Shown: positions 24,306-56,778 of the stretch, in pieces
Layout: each line of letters begins with the position of its first letter
Position numbering within the stretch: the first letter of the stretch is position 1
Source: an uncultured Planctomycetota bacterium
GTDB taxonomy: Bacteria; Planctomycetota; Brocadiia; CAIUPP01
Reading direction: 5' to 3'
Assembly: GCA_903901045.1 (NCBI GenBank)
Contig: CAIUPP010000061.1
Span: forward strand, 38,374-102,373
DNA length: 64,000 nt
The notes under the pieces: generated by a model
Seen by the model: the letters and a program-made list of their open reading frames with translations, nothing else
What the model was told of the DNA's origin: nothing
Database searches by the model: none
Position numbers and translations under genes: made by a program

Positions 24306-24327
24306 GGGGCAAGGCATGCCTTGCCCC
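24306..24327. repeat. family-1 REP-like 22-bp perfect palindrome GGGGCAAGGCATGCCTTGCCCC
   Basis: Exact palindrome. At least 7 copies in the window: 28088, 34868, 38206, 40405, 55339 and 56642 (the last two degenerate), plus the GGGGCGCAGCATGCTGCGCCCC variant at 28005. Confidence 0.85.
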
Positions 24328-24437
24328 TGCGCCAGCACCCCCACGATGGCGCGCGCTTTCCCGCAAAAGCGCGGCGCCCTTCGCTGCCCCGATACAGCGA
24401 GCGGCCAGTCCGCGTCCCGCGCCGCAGGCGCGGGGAA

Positions 24438-24545
24438 AAGAAAGCGGAAAGAACGCACGCTGATTGCGGGTTTGATAACCCGCGCTACATCGGCCTCACG
24501 AACCGGAAGAACTGCACGGTAATCGCGGGTTGGATAACCCTCGCC
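24438..24545. repeat. family-4 element copies c and d (reverse orientation), tandem, upstream of flp genes
   Basis: Reverse complement of 24438-24490 is GTAGCGCGGGTTATCAAACCCGCAATCAGCGTGCGTTCTTTCCGCTTTC. 24500-24545 is a more diverged copy. Confidence 0.7.
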
Positions 24546-24558
24546 ACACCGCCTGCTT

Positions 24559-25113
24559 TCAGCGGCCACACTCCACCTGGCTCCGGTAGAGGGAGCTGCC
24601 GGCAGCATCAATCGCGACGATGGCGGGGAACTCCTGAACCGTCATCTCCCTAAGCGCCTCGGGGCCCAGGTCTTCGTACGCGATCACCCGGGACGCCGTG
24701 ATGCACTTCGCCAGAAGCGCGCCCGCCCCTCCAGTGGCGGCGAAGTACACCGCGCCGTGGCGCTTCATCCCCTCGATGACGGCCGGGGAGCGATCCCCCT
24801 TGCCGATCATCCCGCGCAGCCCCAGGGCGATCAGCCGCGGGGCGTAGGCGTCCATGCGATAACTCGTGGTCGGACCCGCCGCGCCGACCACCTGCCCCGG
24901 CGCGCCGGGCGTGGGGCCGACGTAATAGATGATCGCGCCGCGCAAGTCGACCGGCAGCGGCTCGCCGCGGTCGAGCGCGGCGACCAGCCGCTTGTGCGCG
25001 GCATCGCGCGCAGCGTAGAGGATTCCGCTGATCCGCACCGGCGTCCCCGCCGTCAATCGGCGCGCCGCCTCCTCGCTGAGCGGGGGGGTGATCCTGACGG
25101 GAGCGCTATCCAT
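24559..25113 (-). CDS. class-I fumarate hydratase / L(+)-tartrate dehydratase beta subunit
   Basis: 184 aa matching the FumA C-terminal / TtdB catalytic domain (GPTTSYRMD..., KGDRS...). Confidence 0.8.
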   Translation of the reverse strand: MDSAPVRITPPLSEEAARRLTAGTPVRISGILYAARDAAHKRLVAALDRGEPLPVDLRGAIIYYVGPTPGAPGQVVGAAGPTTSYRMDAYAPRLIALGLRGMIGKGDRSPAVIEGMKRHGAVYFAATGGAGALLAKCITASRVIAYEDLGPEALREMTVQEFPAIVAIDAAGSSLYRSQVECGR

Positions 25114-25274
25114 ACTTCTCCTCTTCCCTGCTGCGCCGATCTATTCACCGCGGAGGCGCGGAGAACGAACGACGCCGTCTTTCATCTCTCAGTTCTCAGT
25201 CTTCAGTTCTCAGTTCTCGCCGTCCTGCGCATCTCCGGGGTGAAAAGGGCAAACGCCCGTCTCGGAGAGAACGT

Positions 25275-25324
25275 GTAGCGCGGGTTATCAAACCCGCGAT
25301 CATTGTGCGTTCTTTCCGATTTCC
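25275..25324. repeat. family-4 element copy b, in the 268-bp spacer between fumarate hydratase alpha and beta genes
   Basis: GTAGCGCGGGTTATCAAACCCGCGATCATTGTGCGTTCTTTCCGATTTCC, preceded at 25185-25225 by a solo CTCAGTT heptamer-repeat arm. Confidence 0.7.
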
Positions 25325-25381
25325 TTTCCCCGCGCCTGTGGCGCGGGACGCGGACTTGATAGTCCGCGCTACATACGCGGC

Positions 25382-26293
25382 TCACAAGACGACTTCCGCA
25401 TGCCGATGGCTGTGGCAGTCCAGGTTGACGGCGACCGGCAGCGCCGCGAGGTGGCATGGGGCCGATGCAACGTGCACCGCCAGCGCTGTGACTTCCCCGC
25501 CCAGCCCCATCGGGCCGACCCCGGTGGCATTGATTTGAGTGAGCAGTTCGCGCTCCAGTTCGGCATCCAGCGCGTTGGCCGCCGGCTGGCCCAGCGGCCG
25601 CAGGAGCGACTCCTTGGCCAGCAGCGCGCATTTCTCGAAGTTTCCGCCGAGGCCCACCCCGACGATGACCGGCGGGCAGGGATTGCCCCCGGATTCGCGC
25701 ACGGCGCGCACGACGAACTCCACCACCCCCTCGCGCCCGGCCGAGGGGGGGAGCATCGCCAGGCGCGACATGTTCTCGCAGCCCCCGCCCTTGGCGGCGA
25801 AGAGAATGCGCAGGCGGTCGCCCGGGACGATGCGCGTGTGCAGGATGGCCGGCGCGTTCGTGCCGGTATTCCTGCGGGTGAGCGGGTGGTCGAGGATGCT
25901 CTTGCGCAGGTGGAAGCGGTTGGCGCCTTCGGCCACCGCCTGCTGAACCGCTTCGGCCAGGTCGCCGCCGGTGAGATGAAGCTCCTGCCCGATCTCCAGG
26001 AAGATCACGGAGACGCCGGTATCCTGGCAGAGCGGCCGGCGCTCGGCCCGGGCGATTTCGGCGTTGTGCTGAAGGTCGGCCAGGATAGCGCGTCCGATGG
26101 CGCTGCTCTCGCGCGCCGCGGCGGCGGCCAGCGCCGCGCACTCCGCGCCGCCCAGGTCAAAAGTGGCCTGTTCGATCAGTCGCAGCAGCGCCGCCTGAAG
26201 CTCTTTCACCGGCAACTCGCGCACGGCGGACCCTCTCCGCAAAACGGGAAACCTGCCTGCACGATATGATAGCAGCTTGCCGCAGCGGTGCAA
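25382..26293 (-). CDS. class-I fumarate hydratase / tartrate dehydratase alpha subunit
   Basis: Fe-S-dependent hydrolyase alpha domain (CQDTGVSVIFLEIG..., HLRKSILDHPLTRRNTGTN..., FAAKGGGCENMS). Confidence 0.8.
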   Translation of the reverse strand: MHRCGKLLSYRAGRFPVLRRGSAVRELPVKELQAALLRLIEQATFDLGGAECAALAAAAARESSAIGRAILADLQHNAEIARAERRPLCQDTGVSVIFLEIGQELHLTGGDLAEAVQQAVAEGANRFHLRKSILDHPLTRRNTGTNAPAILHTRIVPGDRLRILFAAKGGGCENMSRLAMLPPSAGREGVVEFVVRAVRESGGNPCPPVIVGVGLGGNFEKCALLAKESLLRPLGQPAANALDAELERELLTQINATGVGPMGLGGEVTALAVHVASAPCHLAALPVAVNLDCHSHRHAEVVL

Positions 26294-26295
26294 CA

Positions 26296-26380
26296 GAAAC
26301 GAAAGGACCTAAAGGACTGCAAGGACAAAAAGGACCATGGATGTGTCCTTGCAGTCCTTGCAGTCCTTTAGGCCCTTCTT
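26296..26380. repeat. heptamer-periodic hairpin (AAGGAC units) between convergent genes
   Basis: GGACCTAAAGGACTGCAAGGACAAAAAGGACC / loop ATGGAT / GTGTCCTTGCAGTCCTTGCAGTCCTTTAGGCC. Confidence 0.65.
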
Positions 26381-26393
26381 CGCCAGAGCGCCC

Positions 26394-27824
26394 TCACACA
26401 TGATACACCCGCCCCGGCGCGGACTCCTCCTTCGTGTACCGCGCCAGCAGCGCCATCGCCTGCTCCAGGCCGCCGGCCAGCTCCACGTCGAACCCATTCA
26501 CATGGTCCCCGTGGCGCTCCAGCCAGCTCCAGGCGATGTGCAATTCCTCGGCGTCGCTCGGCGGCGGGGGGGTGGAGAAGAAGAACTCGTTCAGCGCGGC
26601 GCGCGCCTGTTCCGGCTCCGCGCGCGGGATCACCAGCCGCCGCAGCGCGCGCTCGCCGTAGAGCAGGAAGAGCTCCGCCTGTCCCTCCTCGGGCGCGGGC
26701 AGAATCAGCGTCAGGCGCTGCGTCGGCGCTTTCGCCAGCGCTGCGCGCTCGTGGATGTCGAACTGGATATTGATCTTCGGCTGGAGTTTGCGGATCGCGG
26801 CGGATTCTTCCAGCAGCGCCGCCAGTTCGGAGCCGGTGCGGCGGGTCTCCAGCCGCGAGACGGACTCCAGGATGCGCTCCCCCTTCTCGTCGCGGCGCAC
26901 GCGGGCGCGGAAGTAGCTCTTCACCCGCTGGCGCAGGTTCAGCGCTTTCCCCACGTACACGGGAGTGCCGCCGGCCTCCTTGAAAATGTAAATCCCCGGC
27001 TCCTCGGGCAGCTGATCGAGGGTCGCCTTGTCGAATTCATACCCGCTGAAATCCACCTCGCGCCGGACGGGATGCTGCAGCGTGGTCCATTCCTGAGGCG
27101 GGGCCAGGCCCACCTCCTCCGAGCGCGCGAGCATCGCGGCGAAGATCTCGGCGATGAAGCGCGCCTTCTCCTCCGCGCTGGCCGGCTCGCGCGCGGGCAG
27201 CCCGAGCTTGGTCGCGAGGCCGCCCGGCGTGGTTGCGCCCGCACCCAGCGTGCGCTTGGCCAGGCGTTCAAGCGAGAGCGTCTCCGCCTCCTCGCCGGCG
27301 AAGGAGAGGGCATGCGCGACGGCGTTCTGGAACGCGCCGATGCGGAAAGCGACCAACGTGGCGCCCCGCGCGAATTCGGCGGCTTTCGCGACGCACTCCG
27401 ACGCCGGCGGCGCCTGGCGGATCGCCTGTTTCAAATTCGGCGGAAGAATGAGGCCGGAGGGGAAGGGGTCCGGACGGATGGGGGAGCCCGCCGTCCCCTG
27501 CGAACGGCCGGCGGAATCGAGCCGCAGCGCGAACCACTCGACGTCCAGGAAGCGCGCGCCGTCGCGCACCAGCGTCGTCTGGAGGATGGCGTATTCCCCG
27601 GCACCGGCTCCTCCCGCGGGCGCCTTCGCGGCCACCCAGGCGCCCGACGCGTTCTGGCTCAGGCGCGGGTCGCCCGCCAGCACGGTCTTCACCAGCTTGT
27701 CCGTGAGTGGGGAAGGCTTGCCGGTGGGGAAGAGGAACTGCGCGGCGATCTCCTGCGACGCCGCCCCCTGTTCGCCGCGCTCGGCGACGAAGGCGAAGAT
27801 TCTGTCCTGAATGGAATTGCTCAT
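26394..27824 (-). CDS. GIY-YIG domain protein with N-terminal uncharacterised domain (Cho/UvrC-N-like nuclease)
   Basis: ATG at 27824 (MSNSIQDRIF...). The GIY-YIG motif PGIYIFKEAGGTPVYVGKALNLRQRVKSYF lies mid-protein. Confidence 0.55.
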   Translation of the reverse strand: MSNSIQDRIFAFVAERGEQGAASQEIAAQFLFPTGKPSPLTDKLVKTVLAGDPRLSQNASGAWVAAKAPAGGAGAGEYAILQTTLVRDGARFLDVEWFALRLDSAGRSQGTAGSPIRPDPFPSGLILPPNLKQAIRQAPPASECVAKAAEFARGATLVAFRIGAFQNAVAHALSFAGEEAETLSLERLAKRTLGAGATTPGGLATKLGLPAREPASAEEKARFIAEIFAAMLARSEEVGLAPPQEWTTLQHPVRREVDFSGYEFDKATLDQLPEEPGIYIFKEAGGTPVYVGKALNLRQRVKSYFRARVRRDEKGERILESVSRLETRRTGSELAALLEESAAIRKLQPKINIQFDIHERAALAKAPTQRLTLILPAPEEGQAELFLLYGERALRRLVIPRAEPEQARAALNEFFFSTPPPPSDAEELHIAWSWLERHGDHVNGFDVELAGGLEQAMALLARYTKEESAPGRVYHV

Positions 27825-29101
27825 CCCTTGCGCAGCGCCTCCAGCGTCCGGCGCATATCCTCCGGCAGCGGCGCCTCGACCGTCAGCGGCTGCTTCGTCG
27901 CAGGATGCTTGAACGTGATCCGCGCCGCGTGGAGCGCCTGGCGGTCGAGAAGCAGAATGTCGCCCGGGTCGCGCGGCGTTTGCGCGGACTCTGTTTCGTT
28001 GGTGGGGGCGCAGCATGCTGCGCCCCTACGCTCCGTGTGGACGCTCTTCCCCTCGTCCTTTGCTCGCGCGGAACCCTCCGCCGTTGTAGGGGCAAGGCAT
28101 GCCTTGCCCTTGCGCTCCGCATGGGCGCTCTTCCCCTCGTCCCTGTCCGGGCCGGATGCCCGCAGGTCCGACAAGTACAACTTGCTCCGCACACCGTACG
28201 ACCTGTCGCACAGGATCGGATGCCCGAGGGCCTGCAGGTGGACGCGGATCTGGTGCATCCGCCCGGTATAGAGCCGGCAGCGCACCAGCGTGAAGGCCGC
28301 GAAGCGTTCGACCACCTTGAACCCCGTGCGCGCCTCCTGGCCGTCCTCGCGCACCATCATCTGCGCGAGGTTCGCATTCTCGTGCTCCTCCCGGCCCAGC
28401 CGAAGGTCGATGAGCCCTTCCTCCTGCTCGATCACCCCCTCCGCGATGGCCAGGTACTCCTTGGTGATGTCGCTCTGCTCGAAGATGAGCGGCACGGAGC
28501 GATCGTTGCGCCCCGTCTTGCAGACCACGAGCACGCCGCTGGTGTCCTTGTCGATGCGGTGCGCCAGCTTGGGGACGACGTCCTTGCGGTGGTCCTCCAG
28601 GTTGCGGTAGCGCAGGTGCAGGGCGTTGATGAGCGTGTCGTAATGGTGTTTCCCCGCCGGGTGGACCACGATGTTCGGCTGCTTGTTGAGAACGAGAAGC
28701 TGGTCATCCTCGTAGAGGATCTCCAGCGGGATTTCCGCCATCCGTTCGCAGGCGTCCGCCGGGGCGGGGGGGAGCGGCACGCGCACCATCTCGCCGGACT
28801 TGACGCGGTACGAGCAATCCAGCCGCGTCCCCGACGAGGTGACCTCGCGCAGCTCGATCAGTTCCTGCACCTTGGTGCGCGAGCGCCAGCGCAGTTTGAC
28901 CTTGAGAAATTGATCGAGCCGAAGGCCGGCCTGGTCGGGATAGACGAAATGCTCCTCCGCCGCCTGGGGAGTGATGAGGCGGTCGGGCGCCTTCCCCGGC
29001 GGCATTAGCTGCCGGCACTGGCCGGGGCGGCGGGGTTTCGCTGGCTGGGAGGCGGATTGGCTCATATCGCAAAGATACCGGGCGGAGGGGGACAGGGTCA
29101 A
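27821..29101 (-). CDS. RluA-family pseudouridine synthase (RluD-like, S4 + catalytic domain) carrying an in-frame ~50-aa palindromic-repeat insertion
   Basis: RluA motifs (HRIDKDTSGVLVVCKT, LVRCRLYTGRMHQIRVHL). Codons encoding ...DRDEGKSAHAERKGKACLAPTTAEGSARAKDEGKSVHTERRGAACCAPT... map onto two tandem family-1 palindrome units (27985-28135). Confidence 0.8.
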   Translation of the reverse strand: MTLSPSARYLCDMSQSASQPAKPRRPGQCRQLMPPGKAPDRLITPQAAEEHFVYPDQAGLRLDQFLKVKLRWRSRTKVQELIELREVTSSGTRLDCSYRVKSGEMVRVPLPPAPADACERMAEIPLEILYEDDQLLVLNKQPNIVVHPAGKHHYDTLINALHLRYRNLEDHRKDVVPKLAHRIDKDTSGVLVVCKTGRNDRSVPLIFEQSDITKEYLAIAEGVIEQEEGLIDLRLGREEHENANLAQMMVREDGQEARTGFKVVERFAAFTLVRCRLYTGRMHQIRVHLQALGHPILCDRSYGVRSKLYLSDLRASGPDRDEGKSAHAERKGKACLAPTTAEGSARAKDEGKSVHTERRGAACCAPTNETESAQTPRDPGDILLLDRQALHAARITFKHPATKQPLTVEAPLPEDMRRTLEALRKG

Positions 29102-29173
29102 GCGAGACGGTCCATGCGCCCGCCTTCATCGGCGCTCCAGGTCGCCGGCGTTTTCGAAGTCCGCGAGGGAATG

Positions 29174-29677: not shown

Positions 29678-29909
29678 GATTTCTCCTGATGAGAAATTAT
29701 AGCAACTCCCGCGCCGAATGTCTCGGCAAGCGTTCAGTCGGAGAGTTCTGCGGGCGATCCGCCGCCGCGCTCCGTCCGCTTTCCCGTCGTCCATTCGTCG
29801 TCGGGCATCCCCGTTTCTCTATTGTTCCAACTCCCTCCTTGACAACCATCCGAAGCGGGCCATAGACTAGCGTGGGCGCGGTGTCGGCTCATCAGCCGGG
29901 GAGTGGGTT

Positions 29910-34823: not shown

Positions 34824-34867
34824 GTGCGCGCCGCGCCGGGCATTAGTCGATCGGGCCTCCACCTTCA

Positions 34868-34888
34868 GGGGCAAGGCATGCCTTGCCC
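34868..34888. repeat. family-1 REP-like palindrome copy
   Basis: GGGGCAAGGCATGCCTTGCCC. Confidence 0.8.
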
Positions 34889-34929
34889 TCTGACGACGCC
34901 GGGGTGTTTCTCTGCGAGAGGGAGAGCGG

Positions 34930-38011: not shown

Positions 38012-38206
38012 ATGGGTGAGAAGAAAAGTTTCCTTCTGCGCATAGACGCCGGGCTCTGGGATGAACTCCAATCCTGGGCCGACGACGAACTGCGCAGCGT
38101 CAACGGGCAAATCGAATACCTCCTGCGCGAGACGGTGCGGGCGCGGCGCAGCCAGCGCGCAGATAAGCGTAACCCGCAGGGGGCAGCGCGCCGTCCTGTT
38201 CTGTAG
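38012..38206 (+). CDS. Arc-type ribbon-helix-helix DNA-binding protein (putative)
   Basis: FLLRIDAGLWDELQSWADDELRSVNGQIEYLLRE resembles the Arc/RHH beta-alpha-alpha unit with the RSxNxEI motif. Confidence 0.45.
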   Translation: MGEKKSFLLRIDAGLWDELQSWADDELRSVNGQIEYLLRETVRARRSQRADKRNPQGAARRPVL

Positions 38207-38226
38207 GGGCAAGGCATGCCTTGCCC
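38206..38226. repeat. family-1 REP-like palindrome copy
   Basis: GGGGCAAGGCATGCCTTGCCC immediately after the RHH gene stop. Confidence 0.8.
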
Positions 38227-38336
38227 TCCAGCCCGCATAGCGCTCGGCGCCCTCGCCCAGCATTGCACCCCTCCTCCGCCAATTGCTAAGATACGGCATT
38301 GCGCGATATTCCGTTGTTTCTTCCCGGAGCCCAGGA

Positions 38337-39629
38337 ATGGCAGCCAAAGGCATTGGTTACAAAGAACACGCGTTGACACAGGAGGAGGTGCGCCAGCTTT
38401 TCGCCCAAGCGGTCAAGGCCGCCGGCCTGCGCGGCAAGAAGCTCCTCTGCATCATCCCGGACAGCACCCGCACCTGCCCGCTCCCGTTCCTCTTCCGCAC
38501 GATGTGCGAGACGGCCGGCGCGGAGGCGTCGAAGCTGGATTTCCTCATCGCGCTGGGCACCCACCCGCCCATGAACGACGAGGCGATCAACGCGCTGCTC
38601 GGCCTCACCCCCGAGGAACGCCGCGGAAAATACGCCAAGGTGGGCATCTTCAACCACCGCTGGGACAAGCCCGACGAGTTGAAGCACGTCGGCACGCTGG
38701 AGGCGGATGAGGTGGAGGAGATCTCGCGCGGCCTGCTGCGCGAGGCGGTGCGCGTCGAGGTGAACCGCCGTTTGGACGACTACGACCATGTCTGCATCAT
38801 CGGCCCGACTTTCCCGCATGAGGTGGTCGGCTTCAGCGGCGGGAACAAGTACTTCTTCCCCGGCGTCAGCGGCCCGGAGGTGCTCAATTTTTTCCACTGG
38901 CTCGGAGCGATGCTGACGATCCCCGTGATCATCGGCACGAAGATGACCCCCGTGCGCCAGGTGGTGGACCGCGCGGCGGCGTTCATCAAGAAGCCGAAGC
39001 TCTGCTTCAGCCTGGTGATCCACCACGGCGAGGTGTACGGGCTGTACACCGGAACGCCCGAGGAGGCGTACGAAAAGGCGGCGGAGCTCTCCCGCGAGCT
39101 GCACATCTGCTACGTCCCGAAACCGTTCAAGCGCGTCCTCTCCTGCGCCCCCAAAATGTATGACGACGTCTGGACCGCCGGCAAGTGCATGTACAAGCTG
39201 GAGCCGGCGCTGGCCGACGGCGCCGACCTCATCATCTACGCGCCGCACATCACGGAAATTTCCTACACGCACGGCAAGGCGCTCGACGCCGTGGGGTACC
39301 ACGTGCGCGATTACTTCCGCACGCGCATGGAGCAGTTCGCGCACATCCCGCGCGGCGTGCTGGCGCACTCGACGCACGTGAAGGGGATCGGCACGTTCAT
39401 CAACGGCGTGGAGAAGCCGCGCGTGAACGTGATCCTGGCGACGCGGATTCCCAAGGAACGCTGCCGCAAGGTGAACCTGGGCTACATGGACCCCGACCAG
39501 ATTCGCGTGGAGGAATTCGCCGGGCGCGAGGAGGAGGGGATTGCGCATATCCCCAAGGCCGGCGAGATGTTATATCGCCTGACCGACGGCTCGGTGCCGC
39601 GCATTCCCGGGGACAAGGACCTGGTGTGA
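38337..39629 (+). CDS. LarA-like (DUF2088, nickel-dependent lactate racemase family) protein
   Basis: ~430 aa. Assignment to the DUF2088/LarA fold is by overall similarity to family members as remembered. No family-defining motif could be verified here. Confidence 0.5.
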   Translation: MAAKGIGYKEHALTQEEVRQLFAQAVKAAGLRGKKLLCIIPDSTRTCPLPFLFRTMCETAGAEASKLDFLIALGTHPPMNDEAINALLGLTPEERRGKYAKVGIFNHRWDKPDELKHVGTLEADEVEEISRGLLREAVRVEVNRRLDDYDHVCIIGPTFPHEVVGFSGGNKYFFPGVSGPEVLNFFHWLGAMLTIPVIIGTKMTPVRQVVDRAAAFIKKPKLCFSLVIHHGEVYGLYTGTPEEAYEKAAELSRELHICYVPKPFKRVLSCAPKMYDDVWTAGKCMYKLEPALADGADLIIYAPHITEISYTHGKALDAVGYHVRDYFRTRMEQFAHIPRGVLAHSTHVKGIGTFINGVEKPRVNVILATRIPKERCRKVNLGYMDPDQIRVEEFAGREEEGIAHIPKAGEMLYRLTDGSVPRIPGDKDLV

Positions 39630-40275: not shown

Positions 40276-40404
40276 AATAGGCCACTCGGAGTGCGAGCCG
40301 TGTGTGGCGCGGACTATCCAGTCCGCGTCGCGGGCGGAACGCCCGCGGTGCCGTTACTGGGGAGCAGTATGCTGCGCCCTGGTCGGGAAGGGCGATCGCC
40401 CAGG

Positions 40405-40426
40405 GGGCAAGGCATGCCTTGCCCCT
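40405..40426. repeat. family-1 REP-like palindrome copy (perfect)
   Basis: GGGGCAAGGCATGCCTTGCCCC between the pilin gene and the gyrB stop. Confidence 0.85.
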
Positions 40427-40451
40427 ACACTTCCGCAATGCCCCCCTCGGG

Positions 40452-43334
<2,883 letters not shown>

Positions 43335-43338
<4 letters not shown>

Positions 43339-44435
43339 TCCTGCACGATCGGCATGAGGAGATAGAGATAATCGGCCCCGGCGCGCATCACGGCCGCGCG
43401 CGCGGCGTCTTTCATCTCGAAGCGGATGGTGTCGCGGCCCATGGCCTTCACCCCGTCCAGAAGGAAATCGGGGTTGAAGCGTATTTCGATGGGAGCGCCT
43501 TCATACTTCGCTTCGATCTCCACGCGCGCCTCGCCGCGCTCGGGGTCGCTGGATTCCACCACCAACTTGCTGCCGCTGAGCTTCAGCCAGACCGCGGCGC
43601 TCTCGCCGGCCGTCAGCGCCGCCGCCTGCCGCACCGCGTTCCCCAACTCCTCGGCGGAGATTTCCAGCCGCTTGTCGCAATCTTCCGGGATGACCTCCTT
43701 GTACGCCGGGAAGCGTCCTTCCACGAGTTGCGCGACCAGCACGCCGTTCTCCGTGCGCATCATCACCTGCCGCTCATGGATGGCTATCTTCACGACTTCT
43801 TCATCGCCGATCATCTTCTGCAACTGTTGCAGCGCTTTGACCGCGATGATGGCGGAGTTGCTGCTGGGGGCGGGCGCATTGGCCTTGCGGCGGATGACGG
43901 CCAGCCGGTGTCCATCTGTCCCGATCATTTCGATCTTCGCCGTCTTCTCCTTGGTCACCAGAAGCACGCCGTTCAGCGCATACCTCTGCTTCTCGGAGGA
44001 AACTGCAAAGACCGTCTTTTCGATCATTTCGCGGAGAACGGCCCCCTCGATTTCAAGGCAGGCTTCATCCGGGAAGTCCGGTATCTCCGGGAACTCCTCT
44101 TCAGAGACCCCCACGACATGAAACTTGCTTCCTTTTCCTTCCACATGAAGCGCGCTGTTTGCGACGCTCAGGGAAAGTCTTTCATCGCGGCTCTCGTTGA
44201 CGATCCCGCCAAGAGGATCCGCCGGGATGACGATGCCACCTGGTTTGGAGACTTGAACATCGCGAACGAAGAACTTGAGCCCCACCTCAAGGTCTGTCGC
44301 TGAGATTTCCAATTTATCTCTAAGCGCCTTGATGTGGATGTCTTTGAGAATCGGCTTGATGTTGCGAGGATCCACAACTCCCGAGACAACTCGCAAAGCT
44401 TCGCGAAGCTGTGTGCGTGAGCAAGAGACGTTCAT
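43335..44435 (-). CDS. dnaN: DNA polymerase III beta sliding clamp
   Basis: 366 aa three-domain clamp, adjacent to dnaA and oriC. Confidence 0.9.
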
Positions 44436-44734
44436 CGCGGACCCTCCGAAACTAGATGGTTAATGGAGTGTAATTCTAACATAATCATCTTCATCCATCA
44501 AGGTCGACAATATGTGGAGCACAACAAACTCCGTGTTTCTATCATTCTAACACATAACGAGTTACGTAATAAAGTACGATGTGGATAACCGTTGAATTAG
44601 TGTGGATAACTTTATTGAAGATATGTGCGCAACCCCACAATCCAACCGCATCAGAATTGATGCTGTTAAGTGATGGCAGGATGCACTCATATTATCCACA
44701 GAAACTTTCCCCTTCTGCACAGATTCTTAACGCC
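44436..44734. other. chromosomal replication origin (oriC) between dnaA and dnaN: AT-rich DUE plus DnaA boxes
   Basis: Perfect DnaA boxes TGTGGATAA at ~44584 and ~44613, and TTATCCACA at ~44691. The segment is strongly AT-rich in a 68% GC genome. Confidence 0.75.
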
Positions 44735-46090
44735 TCATCGGCCCGACGACGTCGTGAGGCTCTGCTTGAGTTGATCCATGGTTTTGGAAAGAGAGGGATT
44801 ATTGCGGACATCTTCCGCAATCTTGGACTCGGCATGGAGCACCGTGCTGTGGTCGCGGCCGCCGAAATACCCCCCGATTTCCTCCAGTGAGAGAGTCGTC
44901 AGCGCGCGCGCCAGATACATGCAGACCTGGCGGGGCATGACGATCGAGCGCGTCCTCTTTTTCGATTGAAGGTCGGCGACGCGCACGTTGAAATGCGCCG
45001 TGACGACGCGCATGATCTCTTCTATCGTGACCGCCGCCATCGGCGAAGCCGGCTCATGCAGCGCCGTCCGCGCGACTTCCAGCGTGATAGGCTTGTTCAA
45101 CAGCGAGGCATACCCCAGCACTTTGGTGATCGCGCCATCCAATTCGCGGATGTTGCTGGTGATCAGGTTGGCGATGAACTCGATCACGTCGTCCGGGATC
45201 TCCACCTGGCGCAACTCCGCCTTCCGATGGAGGATCGCCACGCGCATTTCGTAGCCGGGGGGGTCGATGCGCGCGACCAGCCCGCTCTTGAACCGCGAGG
45301 TGAGCCGCTCCTGCAGGCCGGAAAGGTCCTGCGGCGGCTGGTCGCTGGAGATGACGATCTGCTTCTGCGCGTTGTAGAGATCGTTGAACGTGTGGAAGAA
45401 CTCCTCCTGGCTGCGCTCGGCGCGAGAGAGGAACTGGATGTCATCGATGAAGAGGAAGTCGAGCTGCCGGTAGCGGGCGCGGAAGGAGGGGAGGTCGTTG
45501 CGCTGAATCGCGGCGATGAATTCGTTGACGAACGTTTCGCAGGAGAGGTACGCGATGCGCCGCGCGCCGAATTTCGCGCGGCCGACGTGGCAGATCGCCT
45601 GCAGCAGATGACTCTTGCCCAGGCCGACGGCGCCGTACAGGAAGAGCGGATTGTACGTGCGCCCGGGGCTTTCGCTCACCGCGATGGCGGCGGCATGCGC
45701 GAGCTGGTTCGACGGGCCCACCACGAAGGAGTCGAACGTGTAATGCTCGTTCAGCCGCAGGCCGGGGCCGATCACGACCGGTTCCATGGGGAGCTGTTCC
45801 AGCGGCTCCGGCTCGCGCGGCGCGGGGGCCGGGGCGGAAGCGTCCAGGCTGAAGCGGATGGCCGGCTGGCCGCCCATCACCTGCACAGCGCACTCCTGAA
45901 GGAGTTTCAGGTAGTTCTGCGCCAGCCACTCCTTAAAGAAGTTGTTCGGCACGCGGATGACCAATTCTTCCGCGCTGCAGGAGACCGGCTTGAGGTTCTG
46001 GAACCAGGTGGCGTACTGCTGCTGGCTGACTCGCTTGCGGATGGCATCAAGAAATTCCGGCCAGACGGTCGTTTCCGTCAGCAAGGTCAT
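44735..46090 (-). CDS. dnaA: chromosomal replication initiator DnaA
   Basis: ATG at 46090 (MTLLTETTVWPEF...). AAA+ Walker A GAVGLGKSHLL and the C-terminal DnaA-box-binding HTH. Confidence 0.95.
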   Translation of the reverse strand: MTLLTETTVWPEFLDAIRKRVSQQQYATWFQNLKPVSCSAEELVIRVPNNFFKEWLAQNYLKLLQECAVQVMGGQPAIRFSLDASAPAPAPREPEPLEQLPMEPVVIGPGLRLNEHYTFDSFVVGPSNQLAHAAAIAVSESPGRTYNPLFLYGAVGLGKSHLLQAICHVGRAKFGARRIAYLSCETFVNEFIAAIQRNDLPSFRARYRQLDFLFIDDIQFLSRAERSQEEFFHTFNDLYNAQKQIVISSDQPPQDLSGLQERLTSRFKSGLVARIDPPGYEMRVAILHRKAELRQVEIPDDVIEFIANLITSNIRELDGAITKVLGYASLLNKPITLEVARTALHEPASPMAAVTIEEIMRVVTAHFNVRVADLQSKKRTRSIVMPRQVCMYLARALTTLSLEEIGGYFGGRDHSTVLHAESKIAEDVRNNPSLSKTMDQLKQSLTTSSGR

Positions 46091-46550
46091 AGGCGTCTCC
46101 AGTGTGATGCTCCGGCCGAGGCCGGCGGCTTGCGATGATCGGACGGCGCTGCCAGGCGGCAATATGTCCCGGATCGAAACAGACGGCCGAGGATTCGACC
46201 TGAACGCTCTGGGCTGCGCCGGACGGCAACCAAGTATGTTACGCACCGCCCGGCAGGATGTCAACAAGCGGAAACAAGAGGGGGGATGCCGGTTGCGCAG
46301 GACTTGGAGTGCGCCGCCAAAGGCGGCGCTTTGGCTGCGTACGAACGGGCCATTCCCGGCCGACCCCGCGCATGAGCGAATCCGGCCCAAGACAAAGCGG
46401 CGTCTTTGCCGCCGCAGTCCACACTGTCGCGCCTTGTCATCGCACAAGCTTGCCAAAGTATTGGTTGAACGTTGATCCCGGTCCCCCCTCTCCGCCGCTT
46501 GCATTCCCCGCAGTCCCTCCCGTATGCTCAGGCTCCTTCAGGAGGGAAAA

Positions 46551-46596
46551 GGGGTCTGGCTGCTTTTCACCGTTGTGAAAAGATGCCTGACCCCGG
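46551..46596. repeat. family-2 palindromic element GGGGTCNGGCTGCTTTTCRCCGTKGYGAAAAGATGCCTGACCCC
   Basis: Nearly identical copy at 55263-55308, which lies inside the pabB ORF. Confidence 0.75.
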
Positions 46597-46614
46597 TTCG
46601 CCCGGGAGAGCAGG

Positions 46615-47646
46615 ATGGTCTGGCAGGAACATATCGGCGCGCTTCACGTGCATTCCCGGTACAGCGACGGCTCCGGGACGGTGGAGGAGATTCTCCGCGC
46701 CGCGCGGCAGGCGGGGCTCGACCACGTCGTGCTGACCGACCACGACAGCCTCGCGGCGGCGCGCGAGGGATGGGGCGGCGAGCGCAGCGGGGTGCGGCTG
46801 ATGGTGGGCGTCGAGATCACCCCCAGGGGTCAGGCGCACGTCCTGGCGCTGCGGGTAGACCATTGCGAGGGGTACGCGGCGCGGCACAACGCGCGGGCGC
46901 TGGATGAGGTGGTGGCGCAGGGGGGGTATGCGCTGGTCGCGCACCCGCTGGGGAAGAACAAGCCGCTGCTGGGGATCCGCCAGCCCCCCTGGTACAACTG
47001 GAGCCACCCCGCCATTCGCGGCCTTGAACTCTGGTCGTACACGCATGACTGGGTGGATGGGGTGGCCTGGTGGCGGCTGCCGGAGGCGTACAGCTTCTGG
47101 CGGCATCCGGAGAGCAAGGTGCGCGGGCCGTATCCCGGCGTGCTGTCGATGTGGGATGAAATGGGCCGAAGCCGCCGGCTGGCCGGATGGGGGGGCGTCG
47201 ATTGCCACGCCAAGCCGGTTCCGCTGACCGGCTGGAAGGTGTTCGGCTACGAGCGGATGTTCCGCTTCCTGCGCAATCACCTCTTCATCGAGGAGACGGA
47301 ATACCGGCGCGATCCGGACGCGGCGATCTGGTCGGCGCTGGCGGAGGGGCGCGGCTTCCTGGCGCACGACGCGCTGGCGGATTCGACCGGCGCGCGCTGC
47401 GGCTGCCTCTTCGATGATGGGCGGCTCCTGCAGATGGGGGAGGAAGCGCCGTTCGCCCACGGCGCGGTGATGACGCTGTCGCTGCCGGAGGAGGGGGAGA
47501 TTCGCTGGCTGCAGGATGGCCGTTGCCGCCTCTGCGCCCGCGGACGCGCGCTGCACGGGGAACCGGCGGGGCCGGGGGTGTATCGCTTCGAGGTGCTGCG
47601 CCGCGGGAGGCCCTGGCTGTTCACGAATCCGTTCTATCTGCGCTGA
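46615..47646 (+). CDS. PHP-domain (polymerase/histidinol-phosphatase-like) metal-dependent phosphoesterase
   Basis: LHVHSRYSDGSGT...VLTDHD is a PHP motif I/II. Confidence 0.7.
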   Translation: MVWQEHIGALHVHSRYSDGSGTVEEILRAARQAGLDHVVLTDHDSLAAAREGWGGERSGVRLMVGVEITPRGQAHVLALRVDHCEGYAARHNARALDEVVAQGGYALVAHPLGKNKPLLGIRQPPWYNWSHPAIRGLELWSYTHDWVDGVAWWRLPEAYSFWRHPESKVRGPYPGVLSMWDEMGRSRRLAGWGGVDCHAKPVPLTGWKVFGYERMFRFLRNHLFIEETEYRRDPDAAIWSALAEGRGFLAHDALADSTGARCGCLFDDGRLLQMGEEAPFAHGAVMTLSLPEEGEIRWLQDGRCRLCARGRALHGEPAGPGVYRFEVLRRGRPWLFTNPFYLR

Positions 47647-47743
47647 GGCGGAAGTTGGCGCGGTTCACCACAACCAGGGCGCAGCCCATCGAGAGCCTCA
47701 GGGTCGAACGACATGCTGCGCCCCTACAGCAAACCCACGGCCG

Positions 47744-48811: not shown

Positions 48812-48900
48812 AATGGCCTCCTTCTGCCGCCTATTATAGGCCATCCGCCCCGGGGTAAGCCAGACCTCGATCCATGTCCGCGCCAGGAGCAAAAGGAAAA

Positions 48901-48990: not shown

Positions 48991-49005
48991 GCTGGCTCCA
49001 GCCGA

Positions 49006-51111
49006 TCACTTCCCGGCGGCCGCCTCCAGCGCCTGCAGCCGGCGCTCCAGCGCCTGCGCCGCCGCGCGCTGATCCGCGCACTCCTTCTTCAGCGCGGCGA
49101 TCTCTGCCTCTTTCTGCTGAACGACCTTGTAGAGCCCCTGGATGGAGGCCAGGGCGATGCCGTTGGCATCCAGCGCGCAGATCGTCTTGTCGTCGCCGCC
49201 GAGCCGGAAGGCGGCGTAGAGGTCCTGCGCCATCGGGCCGAGGTGCTGGACCGACGGGCCGTTGACCTTGTAGTTCCATGCCTGCACCGGCACGGCGGCC
49301 AGTGTGCGCAAAATCGCCAGCGTGTCCACGGCGGTGAGGTTCTCTTTGCGCGCCCGGTCGGAGGTGTCGTGCCAGTTGCCGTCAACCCCCAGGTAAGCGC
49401 CGGTCGAGGTGTCGATGACTTTGGTCGCGTCGTTCGGCTGAATGGTGATGACCGCTCCGCCGCTATACGTGAACGTGTTCTGCAAACCGGTGAACAGGTT
49501 GTTGTTGGCCAGATGCGCCATTTGAGAAGCGTGGTCGCCGTCGAGCATGTCCGCGTTGAGGTTGGCGACCAGCGAGGTCGAGCTGACGGCGAACGGGGCG
49601 GTGCCGGTGGCGACCATGGACACGATCTGCCCGCCGGCAAAGATGCGGTTGGGGGTGGCCAGCCCGTACCCGGAGGGGCTGGAGGACTGTCCATACACGC
49701 CATAGGTGGCGCCGGAGCCCGCGCCTGCGATGCCCAGGACACCCATGTACGGCGCCCAGGCGGATACGCCGGTTCCCGTGTCGCCGTTGGCGGTGAAGTG
49801 GCCGCCGATGTTCGACACCGCGCCGGGTGCGGAGGCGTTCCCTTCCACCCCGAGATGCGGCGCCGTGGCCTCAACGCCGACGCCGCTGTTGCCCGAAGCA
49901 ATGAAATAGCCGCCGTAGTTGGTGACATCGCCGGTCGCCGTCGCCGAGGCATAGACGCCGCGCGCCGCGTTGCCGCCGGCGGTGAAGTAGCCGCCATAGT
50001 TGCCCAGATCCCCTGTTCCGGTGGCTATTCCCTGAACGGCCAGGAATGACGCCGTGCCAAAGACCCCGGTGCCGAAATTGCCCCCTGCGGAGAAACTGCC
50101 GCCGACGTTGCTGATGTCGCCGCCGGCCACGGCAGAGCCGCTGACGCCCACGCCGCTCTCACCTGCGGCCGTGAAGTAGCCGCCGTAGTTTGTCCTTGCG
50201 CCGGTGGCTGTGGCGCTGCCGCGCACCGCCTGCGCGCCGGAGTTGGAATCGAAGGTCGACACTTGGAACTTCGCCACGGTCCCGGTCGTGCCGACGCCGA
50301 CCGTGCCGTCCGCGAGAATGCGCATCGCTTCCAAGCCGTTGGTCTTGAGCACGAGCGCCTGCGAATCCGTGGTGCCCAGGAAGTTCGTGCCGGGCGTCGT
50401 GTCCGCATTGCCGATGCGCGACCAGGCGTCCAGGCTGCCGGGCGTGCCCGCGGGCCCGCTCAAACCAGTTGCGCCCGTGGGGCCCATTGCGCCGGTTGCT
50501 CCGGTAGCGCCGGCCGCACCCGCTGCGCCGGTCAGGCCTGTTGCGCCGGTCGAGCCCGTCGCACCCGTCGCACCCGTTGCGCCGGTCGCGCCGGTCGGAC
50601 CTGTTGCGCCAGCAGCGCCGGTCGGGCCCGTGGGTCCTGCCGGCCCCGCCGCGCCCGCCGCGATTTCCGCAGCGTGCAATCCGTCCAGGGTGTCTGCGTC
50701 GCCGGCCGTCGCGGCGTAAAGGCTCTGCATCAAATTACCGAGGGGCCGCCGCGTGGCCAGCGGGATATAGGTGCCGGTCCCCGCCACGGCGCGATACGCC
50801 ACCTGCACCCAGCGCGCCTCGCCGTTGAATGCGCCCGCGCCGAAATCGAGCGAGACGGTATACGCGCCCTTGGTGATCACCGTGCCCGAATGGTCCACGG
50901 CGCCGCCGATCTGCAAGCCGCCGGTGGCGGCATTCCAGAGAGTGAAGCGCATGTCGCACGGGCTCTTCACCTTGGCCTCGGTCTTACCGATGGTGTCGCT
51001 GAATAGGAAGGCGGTTCCCATGGGCGCCGCGAACGCCGCGGCGCAGACGAAAGACAAAACGGCCAGAACGGCTGCGACATTCCGCGCGCACCGCCGCATT
51101 CCCGTCGACAT
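49006..51111 (-). CDS. secreted collagen-like (Gly-X-Y) repeat protein with C-terminal phage-tail-fibre-type intramolecular chaperone (Peptidase_S74-like) domain
   Basis: Signal peptide. [22 protein letters not shown]... tract. Repeated YGGYFTAxG units. C-terminal [12 protein letters not shown]...VQAWNYK matches the S74 chaperone 'SDxRxKxNI' signature. Confidence 0.75.
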
Positions 51112-51305
51112 GGTCCTCTCCTTATTGCCGTGGCTTTGCCAGGGGCCGACCGCCTCGGTCGCCGCTGACGCGTCCGGCGGTATTCTACGCTTCCGGCGCG
51201 AAATCGCAAGAAGAACTCCCCCTCCACTTGCGGCGGGCGCGGCGGTGGACTAAGCTATCCGGTCGACGGCGGATTTTTCCAGGATGGCCCAAACGGGAGA
51301 ATGAC

Positions 51306-54145: not shown

Positions 54146-54381
54146 AGCCCACCCCCTCGAATGCGAACCATCTACGTGCAACTCTATTTCATGTGCAATC
54201 GGCATGCCGCAACTCGCGCAATCCGCGGGCGCACCGCTTTTGTGCTTGCGGGACTAGTGGATTCGCGCAATTTGCGGCGATCGCATGGCTGGCACATTCC
54301 CCCACCTGTTGTGTGTGGAAATCCTACACCCAGGAATTTCAGACACAGGCGGGTCGAAGATAGCACCGGGCCGGGAGAAAT

Positions 54382-55941
54382 TCAAGTGAAATTTAACATG
54401 TTTTTTGCGCCCACTGCCGCCAGCAGCGCGAGCGCTTTTTGCGCCGTTTCGTCGAACTCCGCCTCCGGCCGGCTGTCGGCGACGATGCCGCCCCCGGCCT
54501 GCAGCCAGACCTTGCCTTCGACGGTCAGGATCGTGCGGATGGCGACGCTCATCTCCAGCGCGCCGTCGAACCCCAGGAAGCCGACCGCGCCGGTGTACAC
54601 GGAGCGGGCGGTCGGCTCCAGCTCGTCGATGATCTGCATCGCCCGGACTTTGGGCGCGCCGGTGATGGAGCCGCAGGGGAAGGTCGCGCGCAGCAGATCC
54701 ACCCGGTCGCGGTCGCCGTGGAGTTCCCCCGAGACGGTGGCGACCAGATGATGAACCGTGGGATAGCTCTCCAGGCGCCGCGCCTCCTCCACCCGCACCG
54801 AGCCGTAGGAGCAGACGCGCCCGAGGTCGTTGCGTTCCAGGTCCACGATCATCGCCAGTTCGGCGTTGTCCTTTTCGCTGAGCAGAAGCTCCTGCGCGAG
54901 CGCGCGGTCCTCCTGCGCCGAGACGCCGCGCGGGCGCGTTCCCTTGATCGGCCGCGTCTCCACGCGCCCCCCGCGCAACGAGAGAAACCGCTCCGGCGAG
55001 GCGCTGACCACGGCACGCCCTCCCCCCAAGTCCAGATACGCCGCCATCGGCGCAGGGTTGATCCGGCGCAGCCGCAGATAGAGTTCCCACGGGGGCAGCG
55101 CGCAGGCCGCCTCGAATCGGCGCGAGAGGTTCACTTGGAAAATATCGCCCGCCGCGACGTACTCGATGCACCGCGCCACCGCCCGGAGATATTCCGCGCG
55201 CGAGAAGTTGCAGCGCAACTCCCCCGCAATGCCGGACGAGGCGAATAGCGAATTGCGAATAATGGGGTCGGGCTGCTTTTCGCCGTGGCGAAAAGATGCC
55301 TGACCCCATTTCGTCTTCGCCCAGGCGGATTCCGCCGTGGGGGCAAGGCATGCCCCGCCCCTGCCCGCGACGCCAGGAGCCGTCGCCGGCAGAACGCCGG
55401 TCAGCCGCTCCGCCAGTTCCCCCGCCGCCCGCGCCGCGTTGCGCCCGCCCGCCGCGCACCCCACCGCCCACGCCCGCTGCTCCTGCAGGTCGTACACAAT
55501 GGCGGCATCGTGGAACGCCAGGTGCGATTCCGGCAGGGGGATATCCGCGAGGGCGCGCCTCGGCAATTGCTCGATGAAATGGCAGAGGTCGTACCCCAGG
55601 TATCCCACCGCGCCGCCGAGAAACGGCGTCTCCGGGTGCGGAGGAAAAGTGCGCTCGTTCAGCAGCCGGCGCATTTCGCGGAAGGGATCCTCTTCCACGC
55701 GGCGCTCACCCGCCGCAGCGCGCAGAAGAAGGCTCCGGCCGGCGGACTGCATCACGCGATACGGGCGGCAGCCCAGGAGGCTGTATCGCGCCAGTCCGGG
55801 CATCGGCAGCGCGCTGTCCAGAAAGAACGCCCCCTCCTCGCGCGCCAGAAGGCGGAACGCCTCCTCGGGAGCGGGAGGATGGGGCAGCGGAACGACGCAA
55901 ACCGGCGCAGGCATGACGCACCCCTCAAGAAGAACCGGCAA
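54382..55941 (-). CDS. aminodeoxychorismate/anthranilate synthase component I (PabB/TrpE family) with in-frame repeat insertion
   Basis: Chorismate-binding domain motifs (SPERFL, IKGTRPRG, TFPCGSITGAPK). A ~45-aa insert (...GRGGACLAPTAESAWAKTKWGQASFRHGEKQPDPII...) is encoded by family-1 and family-2 palindromes. Confidence 0.85.
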   Translation of the reverse strand: MPVLLEGCVMPAPVCVVPLPHPPAPEEAFRLLAREEGAFFLDSALPMPGLARYSLLGCRPYRVMQSAGRSLLLRAAAGERRVEEDPFREMRRLLNERTFPPHPETPFLGGAVGYLGYDLCHFIEQLPRRALADIPLPESHLAFHDAAIVYDLQEQRAWAVGCAAGGRNAARAAGELAERLTGVLPATAPGVAGRGGACLAPTAESAWAKTKWGQASFRHGEKQPDPIIRNSLFASSGIAGELRCNFSRAEYLRAVARCIEYVAAGDIFQVNLSRRFEAACALPPWELYLRLRRINPAPMAAYLDLGGGRAVVSASPERFLSLRGGRVETRPIKGTRPRGVSAQEDRALAQELLLSEKDNAELAMIVDLERNDLGRVCSYGSVRVEEARRLESYPTVHHLVATVSGELHGDRDRVDLLRATFPCGSITGAPKVRAMQIIDELEPTARSVYTGAVGFLGFDGALEMSVAIRTILTVEGKVWLQAGGGIVADSRPEAEFDETAQKALALLAAVGAKNMLNFT

Positions 55942-56217
55942 ATGGTAGCGGATGTGCGCCTCCGCCGCAAGGAAGGCGGAGCGGGTTCTTTGCCCGGCCC
56001 GCTCGTTGTTTCCGGATCAAGCGCGCTGGGACAGCGCGCTCCACCATGCCACCGTCGCGTCCGATCTGCGGACTCGCACGTAGGCACGGGCTTTAGCCCG
56101 TGCGCCTGTGGGCGGGCGAGGGCCCGCCCCTACGCGCCAATGCGCCCCCCCCCCGCATGCTTGCATCCTCCGCCGCGCGGCGGTATCGTGTCGGCGGTTC
56201 AACAGAGCGAGGGCTCC

Positions 56218-56625
56218 ATGCACATCCACGAGACGACGATCCGCGTCCTGTACGCCCACACCGACAAAGCGGGGGTGGTCTATTACGCGAACTACCTTCA
56301 GTTCTTCGAGACCGGGCGGACGGAGTACCTGCGCGCGCTGGGGAAGAGCTATGCCGACTTCGAGCGCGACGGAATCATTCTCACCGTCACCGAGGCCGCG
56401 CTCAAGTACCATCGCCCCGCGGTCTATGACGACCTGCTCGCCATCCGCACCCGCGTCACGCGCATCCGGCGCACGCGAATGGATTTTCTCTATGAAGTGC
56501 GCAACGCCGCCGGGGAGCTGCTGTGCGAGGGGAGCACCGTGCTGGGTTGCCTGGATACGACCACCAAGCGTCCGCGCGAACTGCCCGCCGATCTGGTGGC
56601 GCTGGTGGGGGCGGTCGACGCGTAG
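56218..56625 (+). CDS. YbgC/4HBT-family acyl-CoA thioesterase
   Basis: 135 aa hot-dog fold with the VYYANYLQFFE motif. Confidence 0.8.
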   Translation: MHIHETTIRVLYAHTDKAGVVYYANYLQFFETGRTEYLRALGKSYADFERDGIILTVTEAALKYHRPAVYDDLLAIRTRVTRIRRTRMDFLYEVRNAAGELLCEGSTVLGCLDTTTKRPRELPADLVALVGAVDA

Positions 56626-56778
56626 GCACGGGAGGCCCGCAGGGGCAAGGCATCGGCCTGCCTTCCGACGAACGCGGGGGAGCTGGCCCGCGGAATGGTG
56701 GAGCGGGCTGTCCCAGCCCGCTCGTTGTTTCTGTCTGCAGCGCTGGGGACAGCGCGCACCACCACAGCGCACACGGCA

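Follow-up and report, generated by a model that had tools for sequence, protein, structure and literature searches.

What are the short palindromes that recur in this stretch of planctomycete DNA, and how did they come to lie at so many separate sites? The window, which is the whole stretch of 64,000 nt analysed here (positions 38,374 to 102,373 of contig CAIUPP010000061.1), had been described in an earlier note as carrying at least seven copies of a 22-bp palindrome resembling repetitive extragenic palindromic sequences (REPs). On the basis of the evidence given below, the repeats are best explained as double-foot, GTAG-tagged REPs, acting as the cis-sites which one subfamily of REP-associated tyrosine transposases (RAYTs, of the HUH/Y1 kind) recognises and would have spread in trans; the probability of this explanation is put at roughly 0.78. 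It draws on the anatomy of the repeats, their excess over chance, compensatory changes in a stem triplet, their physical association with RAYT genes elsewhere, and sites that are filled in some relatives and empty in others. The host was taken to be a planctomycete because of the names carried by homologues of two proteins encoded in the window, one RluD-like and one PabB-like (Planctomycetia, Planctomycetota, Brocadiia, Isosphaeraceae and Thermoguttaceae).

When the flanks are read along with the core, the repeat unit is 28 bp long and, if intact, forms the perfect palindrome GTAG-GGGC-AAG-GCATGC-CTT-GCCC-CTAC, with a terminal tetranucleotide, or foot, at each end. The 22-mer reported earlier, GGGGCAAGGCATGCCTTGCCCC, is the core of this unit; the palindrome is real, and its length had been given without the complete feet. 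With no more than one mismatch, GGGGCAAGGCATGCCTTGCCCC starts at 24306, 28089, 34868, 38206 and 40404, and with two mismatches at 55340, while the sibling 22-mer GGGGCGCAGCATGCTGCGCCCC lies at 28005 and has a three-mismatch relative at 40359. Three starts had been placed one base off (28088, 40405 and 55339). These 6 and 2 matches compare with 0 for either pattern in 100 dinucleotide-preserving shuffles of the window, the G+C content of which is 62-71%. Altogether the window possesses 10 copies or remnants of a family, designated family A, with the consensus GT[AG]G-GGGC-NNN-GCATGC-N'N'N'-GCCC-C[TC]AC, also writable as GT[AG]GGGGCNNNGCATGCNNNGCCCC[TC]AC. The earlier description of the palindrome as REP-like is borne out by the GT[AG]G foot, the G/C-rich stem and the copies dispersed over the window. 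GTAG or GTGG feet were found at 24303, 28002, 28086, 38203, 47724-47727 (- strand) and 55337, and three units carry a foot at both ends, namely 24303-24330 (GTAG/CTGC), 28002-28029 (GTGG/CTAC) and 55337-55364 (GTGG/CTGC). Family A supplies 6 of the 17 strongest palindromes or hairpins of the window. Its hairpin has 10-14 bp on single-stranded DNA or RNA, and intact copies folded as single-stranded DNA reach -10 to -14 kcal/mol with z of about -3. Three copies are decayed (40359, 55340 and 56642); two of them, 55340 and 56642, fold no better than shuffled sequence and are degenerate remnants.

The distribution of family A beyond the window was examined with a 21-mer in one genome per species, which gave at least 103 stretches; counts for these genomes refer to the matches listed. 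Among them, the 28-mer was found in metagenome-assembled genomes (MAGs) labelled as roughly 18-20 phylum-level groups, including Chloroflexota, Bacteroidota, Planctomycetota, Cyanobacteriota, Desulfobacterota, Gemmatimonadota, Nitrospirota, Omnitrophota, Spirochaetota, Campylobacterota, Deinococcota, Acidobacteriota and Patescibacteria, at loci of 33-71% G+C. Of 106 listed occurrences, 96 have at least one foot (both GTAG and CTAC in 49, one in 47) and 10 have neither. Similarity ends at the feet and the flanks are unrelated. An unbiased scan of metagenome contigs with GTAGGGGCNNNGCATGCNNNGCCCCTAC, in which the middle three positions of the stem were left free, returned at least 127 matches. 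Complementary triplets were present in 116 of the 127 listed, against 1 in 64 expected by chance, and they represent 13 complementary variants, of which GCA/TGC, the type of the window's sibling palindrome, is the commonest and AAG/CTT is rarer. Among the window and genome loci, 79 of 82 triplet pairs are complementary. The base and the centre of the hairpin are thus fixed while its middle is free as long as it pairs, which is the signature of a folded single strand.

Some of these loci depart from the simple unit. In the Desulfobacterota MAGs L022, L095, L042, L060 and L034, two stem variants stand head to tail as GTAG-[20 nt]-N-[20 nt]-CTAC; the arrangement looks like a 21-nt footless hairpin inserted beside an existing one and may be informative on the cutting position of the enzyme. 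That copies as a general rule enter the loops of hairpins already in place was considered and rejected, since 32 of the 49 two-footed copies have no complementarity beyond the feet and 8 have a single further base pair, which is near chance. In three of the 49 the palindrome runs on for 8 bp or more outside the feet (8-15 bp; L030 469, L031 4069 and L079 5266), a sign that now and then a copy may be inserted at the centre of an older hairpin. Eighteen IMG/VR contigs classed as viral (L231-L248) also carry the 28-mer pattern, none of them adjoining a RAYT. Recurrent neighbours were otherwise of little help, the largest cluster of open reading frames (ORFs) at the loci being ABC-transporter ATPases, which are ubiquitous and uninformative.

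One informative cluster did emerge from an all-against-all comparison of the ORFs of the 103 listed loci. It represents a Y1 transposase of about 190 aa, encoded at 7 of these loci, in which VIMPNHIHGII forms the HUH motif and WQRNYYEHVIR the tyrosine motif. The seven loci belong to seven differently labelled MAGs of six phylum-level groups (Ratteibacteria, Dysgonamonadaceae, Ignavibacteria, Chloroflexia, Brevinematales, Helicobacteraceae and Anaerolineaceae). Among family models the proteins score best with NCBIfam REP_Tyr_transpos, "REP-associated tyrosine transposase" (NF047646; E 3e-20, below the model's cut-off), and they match Pfam Y1_Tnp (PF01797) as well. A RAYT or IS200-like partner, as the earlier note had suggested, therefore exists in other genomes, with the same 28-mer inside or beside the gene. 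In L039, L046, L077, L088 and L092 it lies inside the RAYT ORF, between the HUH and tyrosine motifs, and is read VGARHALPL. L046 has a second, intact 28-mer 28 nt beyond the ORF; L038 has a copy without the GTAG foot at the 3' end of the ORF, and in L047 the 28-mer lies about 550 nt beyond an apparently frameshifted one. A homologue search yielded at least 7,936 relatives, several of them named "REP element-mobilizing transposase RayT", and the best 120 were examined. An intact translated palindrome was present at the same position in 92 of the 120 (for example VGARHAVPL, VGATHASPL, VGAQHAAPL and RGTACRAPT), and most of the other 28 show a decayed one, often with extra half-copies. The internal palindrome is read as VGA..PL in 84 of the 120 and as RG..APT in 12, 4 homologues with both being counted in each; the foot places its TAG in the third frame. 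In P0127, P0209 and P0227, copies of the same stem variant were also seen upstream, and such a RAYT occurs together with dispersed copies in three assemblies (JACKCF01, CAWJBF01 and CAZTNJ01).

RAYTs with an identical 28-mer share just 30-52% protein identity, an unusually sharp contrast which makes them a good system for studying how RAYT and hairpin are matched. It also raises the more speculative idea that the hairpin in the RAYT frame is a heritable master copy instead of a tolerated insertion, gene and cis-site travelling together as a single-gene replicator. In favour of it, nearly all homologues have the internal copy at one and the same position, most of them use one particular frame of the two that are open, and the copy is 100% identical between such diverged proteins. 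We hold this idea to be doubtful. If it were true, re-insertion or conversion from dispersed copies would have to renew the site continually, or the site would have to be under direct selection, and either would explain an identical 28-mer across many phyla.

Sites in the window were compared with those of related planctomycete contigs (L104-L110, about 45 kb) and with protein orthologues (P-numbers). Family A has 10 copies in the 64 kb of the window, where 0 are expected, six in 13.5 kb of the syntenic L107 and five in 21 kb of the syntenic L108, three of the latter 23-47 nt past stops. The RluD-like 23S rRNA pseudouridine synthase aligns with E. coli RluD in two blocks (query 54-306 with 12-257, and query 384-424 with 273-313). 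Between them, in a loop separating the catalytic domain from a conserved C-terminal motif, is an insertion of about 59-62 aa which holds two REPs. The orthologue P0001 (85% identical) has both palindromes, while in a multiple alignment P0002 (81%) and all more distant orthologues lack the insert. At the DNA level the window and L107 have a filled rluD site, and L106 has an empty one. In the PabB-like protein, an insertion of about 42 aa in the linker of its two Pfam domains contains one family-A REP and one palindrome of another family, B, and four states of this loop were seen: both A and B in the window, A only in P0242 (86% identical), B only in P0243, and neither in P0244 and others. Together with its relatives the window thus offers a natural series in which one protein loop is empty or holds one element, another, or both. 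The spacer of fumA and fumB carries a REP copy in L107 and is empty in the window; an aligned site downstream of fumB has an AAG/CTT stem in the window against GTA/TAC in L107. At the site orthologous to the split copy at 47674, L108 has a compact copy of the 28-mer type. These differences between filled and empty sites among orthologues argue for mobility. The ends of the insertions and any target duplications are not definable from nucleotide alignment of the empty and filled rluD and pabB loops, which are too diverged.

The RluD insert has a further peculiarity. On the - strand reading of 27990-28130, about 33 nt upstream of each palindrome are repeated, GGACGAGGGGAAGAGCGyCCAnnCGGAGCG, read DEGKSxHxER. 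In L107 this flank is a single copy, and in the window a local duplication or conversion therefore seems to have followed the original insertion.

The GKACLAP peptide had previously been regarded as a product of spurious ORFs. It is not confined to them, being part of the real RluD-like protein, and the related GRGGACLAPT occurs in the PabB-like one; both segments are in-frame insertions in surface loops, without counterpart in close orthologues. The peptides RGKACLAPT, RRGAACCAPT and VGARHALPL are markers of family A and can flag spurious ORFs, and since such peptides also occur within these two real proteins, gene callers and domain boundaries near the repeats call for care.

By analogy with E. 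coli TnpA-REP and IS200/IS605 (PMC3479197; PMC6006769), the most likely mechanism is that a RAYT recognises the folded hairpin and the GTAG foot on single-stranded DNA and cuts and rejoins next to the foot, by which copies would spread in trans to new sites. Copies would persist where they are harmless, as at the 3' ends of genes and in the spacers of convergent genes. In one frame the foot supplies a TAG stop; the other two are open (VGARHALPL and RGKACLAPT), so that the surface loops of proteins may likewise tolerate a copy. Activity in this genome may continue at present, and some benefit to the host is conceivable.

Several points weigh against this explanation. The RAYT subfamily matches the features given for TnpA-REP subclass 2.4 (PMC6006769), an assignment by features (a variable insert after the HUH strand and a REP inside the gene), not by the profiles of its authors. 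No RAYT was found in the 64-kb window or in the roughly 45 kb of L104-L110, about 110 kb in total, by Pfam scans of about 55 window ORFs and by tblastn with the 120 RAYT homologues against the window and L104-L110. All that these searches matched were the translated palindromes. The search for a RAYT that the earlier note called for was thus successful in other genomes and negative here, and the cognate enzyme for this genome is therefore putative only. To our knowledge, cleavage and joining have been demonstrated only for E. coli TnpA-REP, which belongs to a different subclass. The count of phyla may be inflated by binning errors, several of the MAG matches being on short contigs. Since three copies are decayed, the family may no longer be active here.

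The missing RAYT and the decay of 3 of the 10 copies, along with several degenerate feet, are also what would be expected of fossils, copies once spread by a RAYT since lost, which drift, are kept where harmless and are no longer mobile. This is a possible reading, clearly less probable than the preferred one. Five copies retain a perfect or near-perfect 22-mer, and the roughly 110 kb seen belong to a genome of several Mb. Moreover, contigs with proteins about 80-86% identical differ in their filled sites and, at one site, in the stem variant, which points to turnover more recent than those splits.

A function for the host, with spread only secondary, was considered next: protection of mRNA 3' ends, pausing or termination, or binding of gyrase or integration host factor (IHF). 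Such roles are reported for E. coli REPs (PMC3733652, PMC3479197). The stem is kept through compensatory changes, and 6 of the 10 copies lie 0-84 nt past a stop, four of them between convergent genes. Most copies had been said to lie immediately after stop codons. This is true for five at 0-45 nt (34868, 38206, 40404, 47674 and 56642), three of which are between convergent genes; two others are at 84 nt (40359) and 232 nt (24306), and three are inside genes. By location, 7 of the 10 are extragenic, four of these between convergent genes, and three are intragenic and in frame (28005, 28089 and 55340). A terminator role, also proposed earlier, is not supported. An intrinsic terminator needs a T-tract behind its hairpin, and every copy lacks one, the tails not being T-rich. 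A consensus scan called 10 terminator-like sites in 24-41 kb, which equals the shuffle expectation, with no REP copy among them; intrinsic (Rho-independent) terminators were rejected on both grounds. Two copies have lost the hairpin and yet remain, and three are within coding regions. Local selection also fails to explain an identical 28-mer across genomes of 33-71% G+C and many phyla, and inside RAYT genes. A host function as the primary explanation is accordingly improbable.

The perfect 28-bp dyad with its invariant GCATGC centre could suggest a duplex site for a dimeric regulator, or a target of restriction-modification or methylation centred on GCATGC. We regard this as very improbable: the three middle pairs of the stem vary freely if paired, which indicates a folded single strand and not a duplex operator, the copies are at gene 3' ends and inside ORFs and not at promoters, and they are linked to Y1 transposase genes. 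Chance or an assembly artefact, for which nothing speaks apart from the high G+C (66%), has a negligible probability, being already refuted by the 0 matches in 100 shuffles and opposed by the same contig sequence in independent assemblies and by copies kept at orthologous sites in related contigs. Contigs with the identical PabB are up to 121,773 bp long, and those with dnaN in the ENA assemblies ERZ27313059 and ERZ27313068 measure 6-10 kb.

Table 1. Copies of family A, the genes that host them and other REP-type hairpins, in window coordinates.
Feature	Position	Strand	Remarks
REP copy, AAG/CTT stem, GTAGGGGCAAGGCATGCCTTGCCCCTGC	24303..24330		hairpin -14.1 kcal/mol, z -3.0; intergenic, 232 nt downstream of the fumarase beta-subunit stop (24559, - strand)
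RluD-like 23S rRNA pseudouridine synthase gene	27821..29062	-	PDB RluD alignment
REP copy, GCA/TGC stem (GTGG...CTAC)	28002..28029		in frame within the RluD-like gene, read RRGAACCAPT
REP copy, AAG/CTT stem (GTAG...TTGC)	28086..28113		in frame within the RluD-like gene, read KGKACLAPT
REP copy, AAG/CTT stem, both feet degenerate (TCAG...TCTG)	34865..34892		extragenic; 45 nt past the stop of a 1637-aa HEAT-repeat gene, 41 nt ahead of a GNAT gene start
REP copy, AAG/CTT stem (GTAG...TCCA)	38203..38230		foot overlaps a stop codon: its TAG (38204-38206) ends a 64-aa ribbon-helix-helix ORF (38012-38206, +)
Degenerate GCA-type copy GGGGAGCAGTATGCTGCGCCCT	40356..40383		84 nt past the stop of a pilin-like gene, which is convergent with gyrB
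REP copy, AAG/CTT stem, perfect 22-mer, CTAC foot	40401..40428		27 nt from the gyrB stop (40452), in the same spacer as the preceding copy
Split GCA-type copy, GTAGGGGCGCAGCATG + 27-nt insert + CTGCGCCC	47674..47727		detected through a related contig; hairpin tip interrupted by the insert; spacer of the PHP (stop 47646) and ApbE (stop 47744) genes, which converge
PabB-like aminodeoxychorismate synthase gene	54382..55914	-	Pfam scans
Decayed AAG-type copy GTGGGGGCAAGGCATGCCCCGCCCCTGC	55337..55364		in frame within the PabB-like gene, read GRGGACLAPT
Degenerate remnant GGGGCAAGGCATCGGCCTGCCTTCC	56639..56672		17 nt past the stop of a 4HBT thioesterase gene (56218-56625, +), which is convergent with a lyxose isomerase gene
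Further double-foot hairpin, other stem, GTGG-GCGGGC-GAGG-GCCCGC-CCCTAC	56108..56133		between the divergent pabB-like and thioesterase genes
Family C copy	23407-23430	+	
Family C copy	24465-24488	-	
Family C copy	24524-24547	-	
Family C copy	25275-25298	+	
Family C copy	25349-25372	-	
Family C copy	40304-40327	+	

The coordinates of these features are collected in Table 1. The 64-aa ORF that ends in the foot of the copy at 38203 matches RHH_5 with E 4.7e-5, below Pfam's cut-off. Besides family A, the window has other palindromes. Family C is a classical single-foot REP, GT[AG]G-CGCGGGTT-ATC[AC]-AACCCGCG, the stem of which shows the compensatory variants GGGTT/AACCC and GGACT/AGTCC; its copies at 25275 and 25349 form an inverted, REPIN-like pair. 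Family C copies are also found in L108, in the orthologous spacer of lyxose isomerase and thioesterase, where the window has the degenerate family-A copy. The palindrome of family B, with arms of about 24 nt (GGGGTCnGGCnnCTTTTC...GAAAAGnnGCCnGACCCC), is present at 46546-46599, immediately ahead of dnaA, where the origin region probably lies, and at 55261-55310, in frame within the PabB-like gene and read KWGQASFRHGEKQPDP. Copies of it occur in L108 and L109 also, and P0243 has B without A. Lastly, a hairpin at 13818-13846 within the Tad secretion genes, GTGGGGGTCGCG-AACGC-CGCGATCCCCAC, has GTGG...CCAC feet, another stem and a 5-nt loop.

The Pfam gene map identifies the window as a region of the chromosomal origin. 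At 40.4-46.5 kb are dnaA, dnaN, a DciA-like gene and gyrB; fumarase genes, an operon for a Tad pilus and housekeeping genes are present as well. The dnaA - dnaN - DciA-like - gyrB cluster (40452-46615) is typical of a bacterial replication origin region, and the dnaA ORF as listed has 589 aa against the 451-aa product called on other contigs. Two PF05635 ("23S rRNA-intervening sequence protein") genes, at 17244-17633 and 18705-19133, lie among TadE/TadG-like Tad pilus genes, an arrangement which is the same in L107. In a 701-aa ORF (49006-51111, -), collagen triple-helix repeats occur together with a Peptidase_S74 (endosialidase chaperone) domain. This combination is typical of phage tail fibres; here it stands among housekeeping genes, and the syntenic part of L108 lacks it.

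Palindromic repeats tolerated in frame in the loops of housekeeping proteins are known from Rickettsia, where the palindromic elements are about 100-150 bp long, form in-frame insertions in protein genes and have no known RAYT partner; they share this habit with family A, and the sequences are unrelated. The E. coli REPs and the bacterial interspersed mosaic elements (BIMEs) which they form have reportedly been studied together with TnpA-REP by Ton-Hoang and colleagues in 2012, and we know of no biochemistry on family A as yet. The structure of E. coli TnpA-REP with bound REP (Messing et al. 2012; PMC3479197) shows an HUH/Y1 enzyme binding the REP hairpin and the GTAG tetranucleotide on single-stranded DNA, and serves as the model for the proposed mechanism. 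The E. coli REPs differ in being imperfect, bulged, single-footed and arranged in BIMEs, and their RAYT is of another subclass. REPINs, in the account of Bertels and Rainey 2011 contained in PMC3733652, are two inverted REPs with a spacer, thought to be copied by a single-copy RAYT. Like them, family A consists of non-autonomous hairpin-forming elements. Its units are single, compact, symmetric and spacer-free, and a REPIN was therefore rejected; only the split copy at 47674-47727, with its 27-nt centre, resembles one. A miniature inverted-repeat transposable element or an IS200/IS605 end was rejected also, as similarity stops at the 28-mer, the flanks are unrelated and no transposase is present in the window.

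Closer relatives are found in the GTAG-tagged REP superfamily of 24 families described by Di Nocera, De Gregorio and Rocco 2013 (BMC Genomics 14:522; PMC3733652). It has complementary stem variants, members in Planctomycetes and Chloroflexi, a preference for the 3' ends of genes and for the spacers of convergent ones, and copies that are read in frame, some of them in pseudouridine synthase genes. Family A shows the same short palindromic stem-loop of 20-40 bp, the terminal GT[AG]G and complementary stem sub-families. Its copies are mostly extragenic, lying past the ends of ORFs or in the spacers of convergent or co-directional genes, with occasional in-frame ones, and intragenic copies are likewise permitted by the description of the superfamily. 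The tag of that superfamily is one-ended and unpaired (PMC3733652), whereas in family A it stands at both ends and is self-complementary, so that the element has no orientation. Neither GCATGC nor GTAGGGGC occurs in the supplementary files of that paper, and the G. uraniireducens GTAG-11 peptide VGAGCPRPGRGDRAP (PMC3733652), tried as a match, is a different sequence.

The nearest published counterparts come from Quentin, Siguier, Chandler and Fichant 2018 (BMC Genomics 19:475; PMC6006769), who reported "double foot" REPs for TnpA-REP subclass 2.4, with a patchy distribution across many phyla, Cyanobacteria and Bacteroidetes being stressed. Common to both are the 5' GT[AG]G with its complementary 3' C[TC]AC, a patchy distribution, REPs inside and beside the RAYT gene (for family A, in the RAYTs of other genomes) and a stem base of consecutive G-C pairs; in family A this base, GGGC...GCCC, is invariant across all variants and includes the three consecutive G-C pairs given for the subclass. 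The differences here are the planctomycete host and a window without a RAYT. The consensus GGGC-NNN-GCATGC-N'N'N'-GCCC and its exact 20-mer were not found in any searchable paper text. With the exact sequence absent from searchable papers and supplements, family A is therefore a new sequence member of a kind of element already published, and it leaves the known picture of REP/RAYT systems unchanged.

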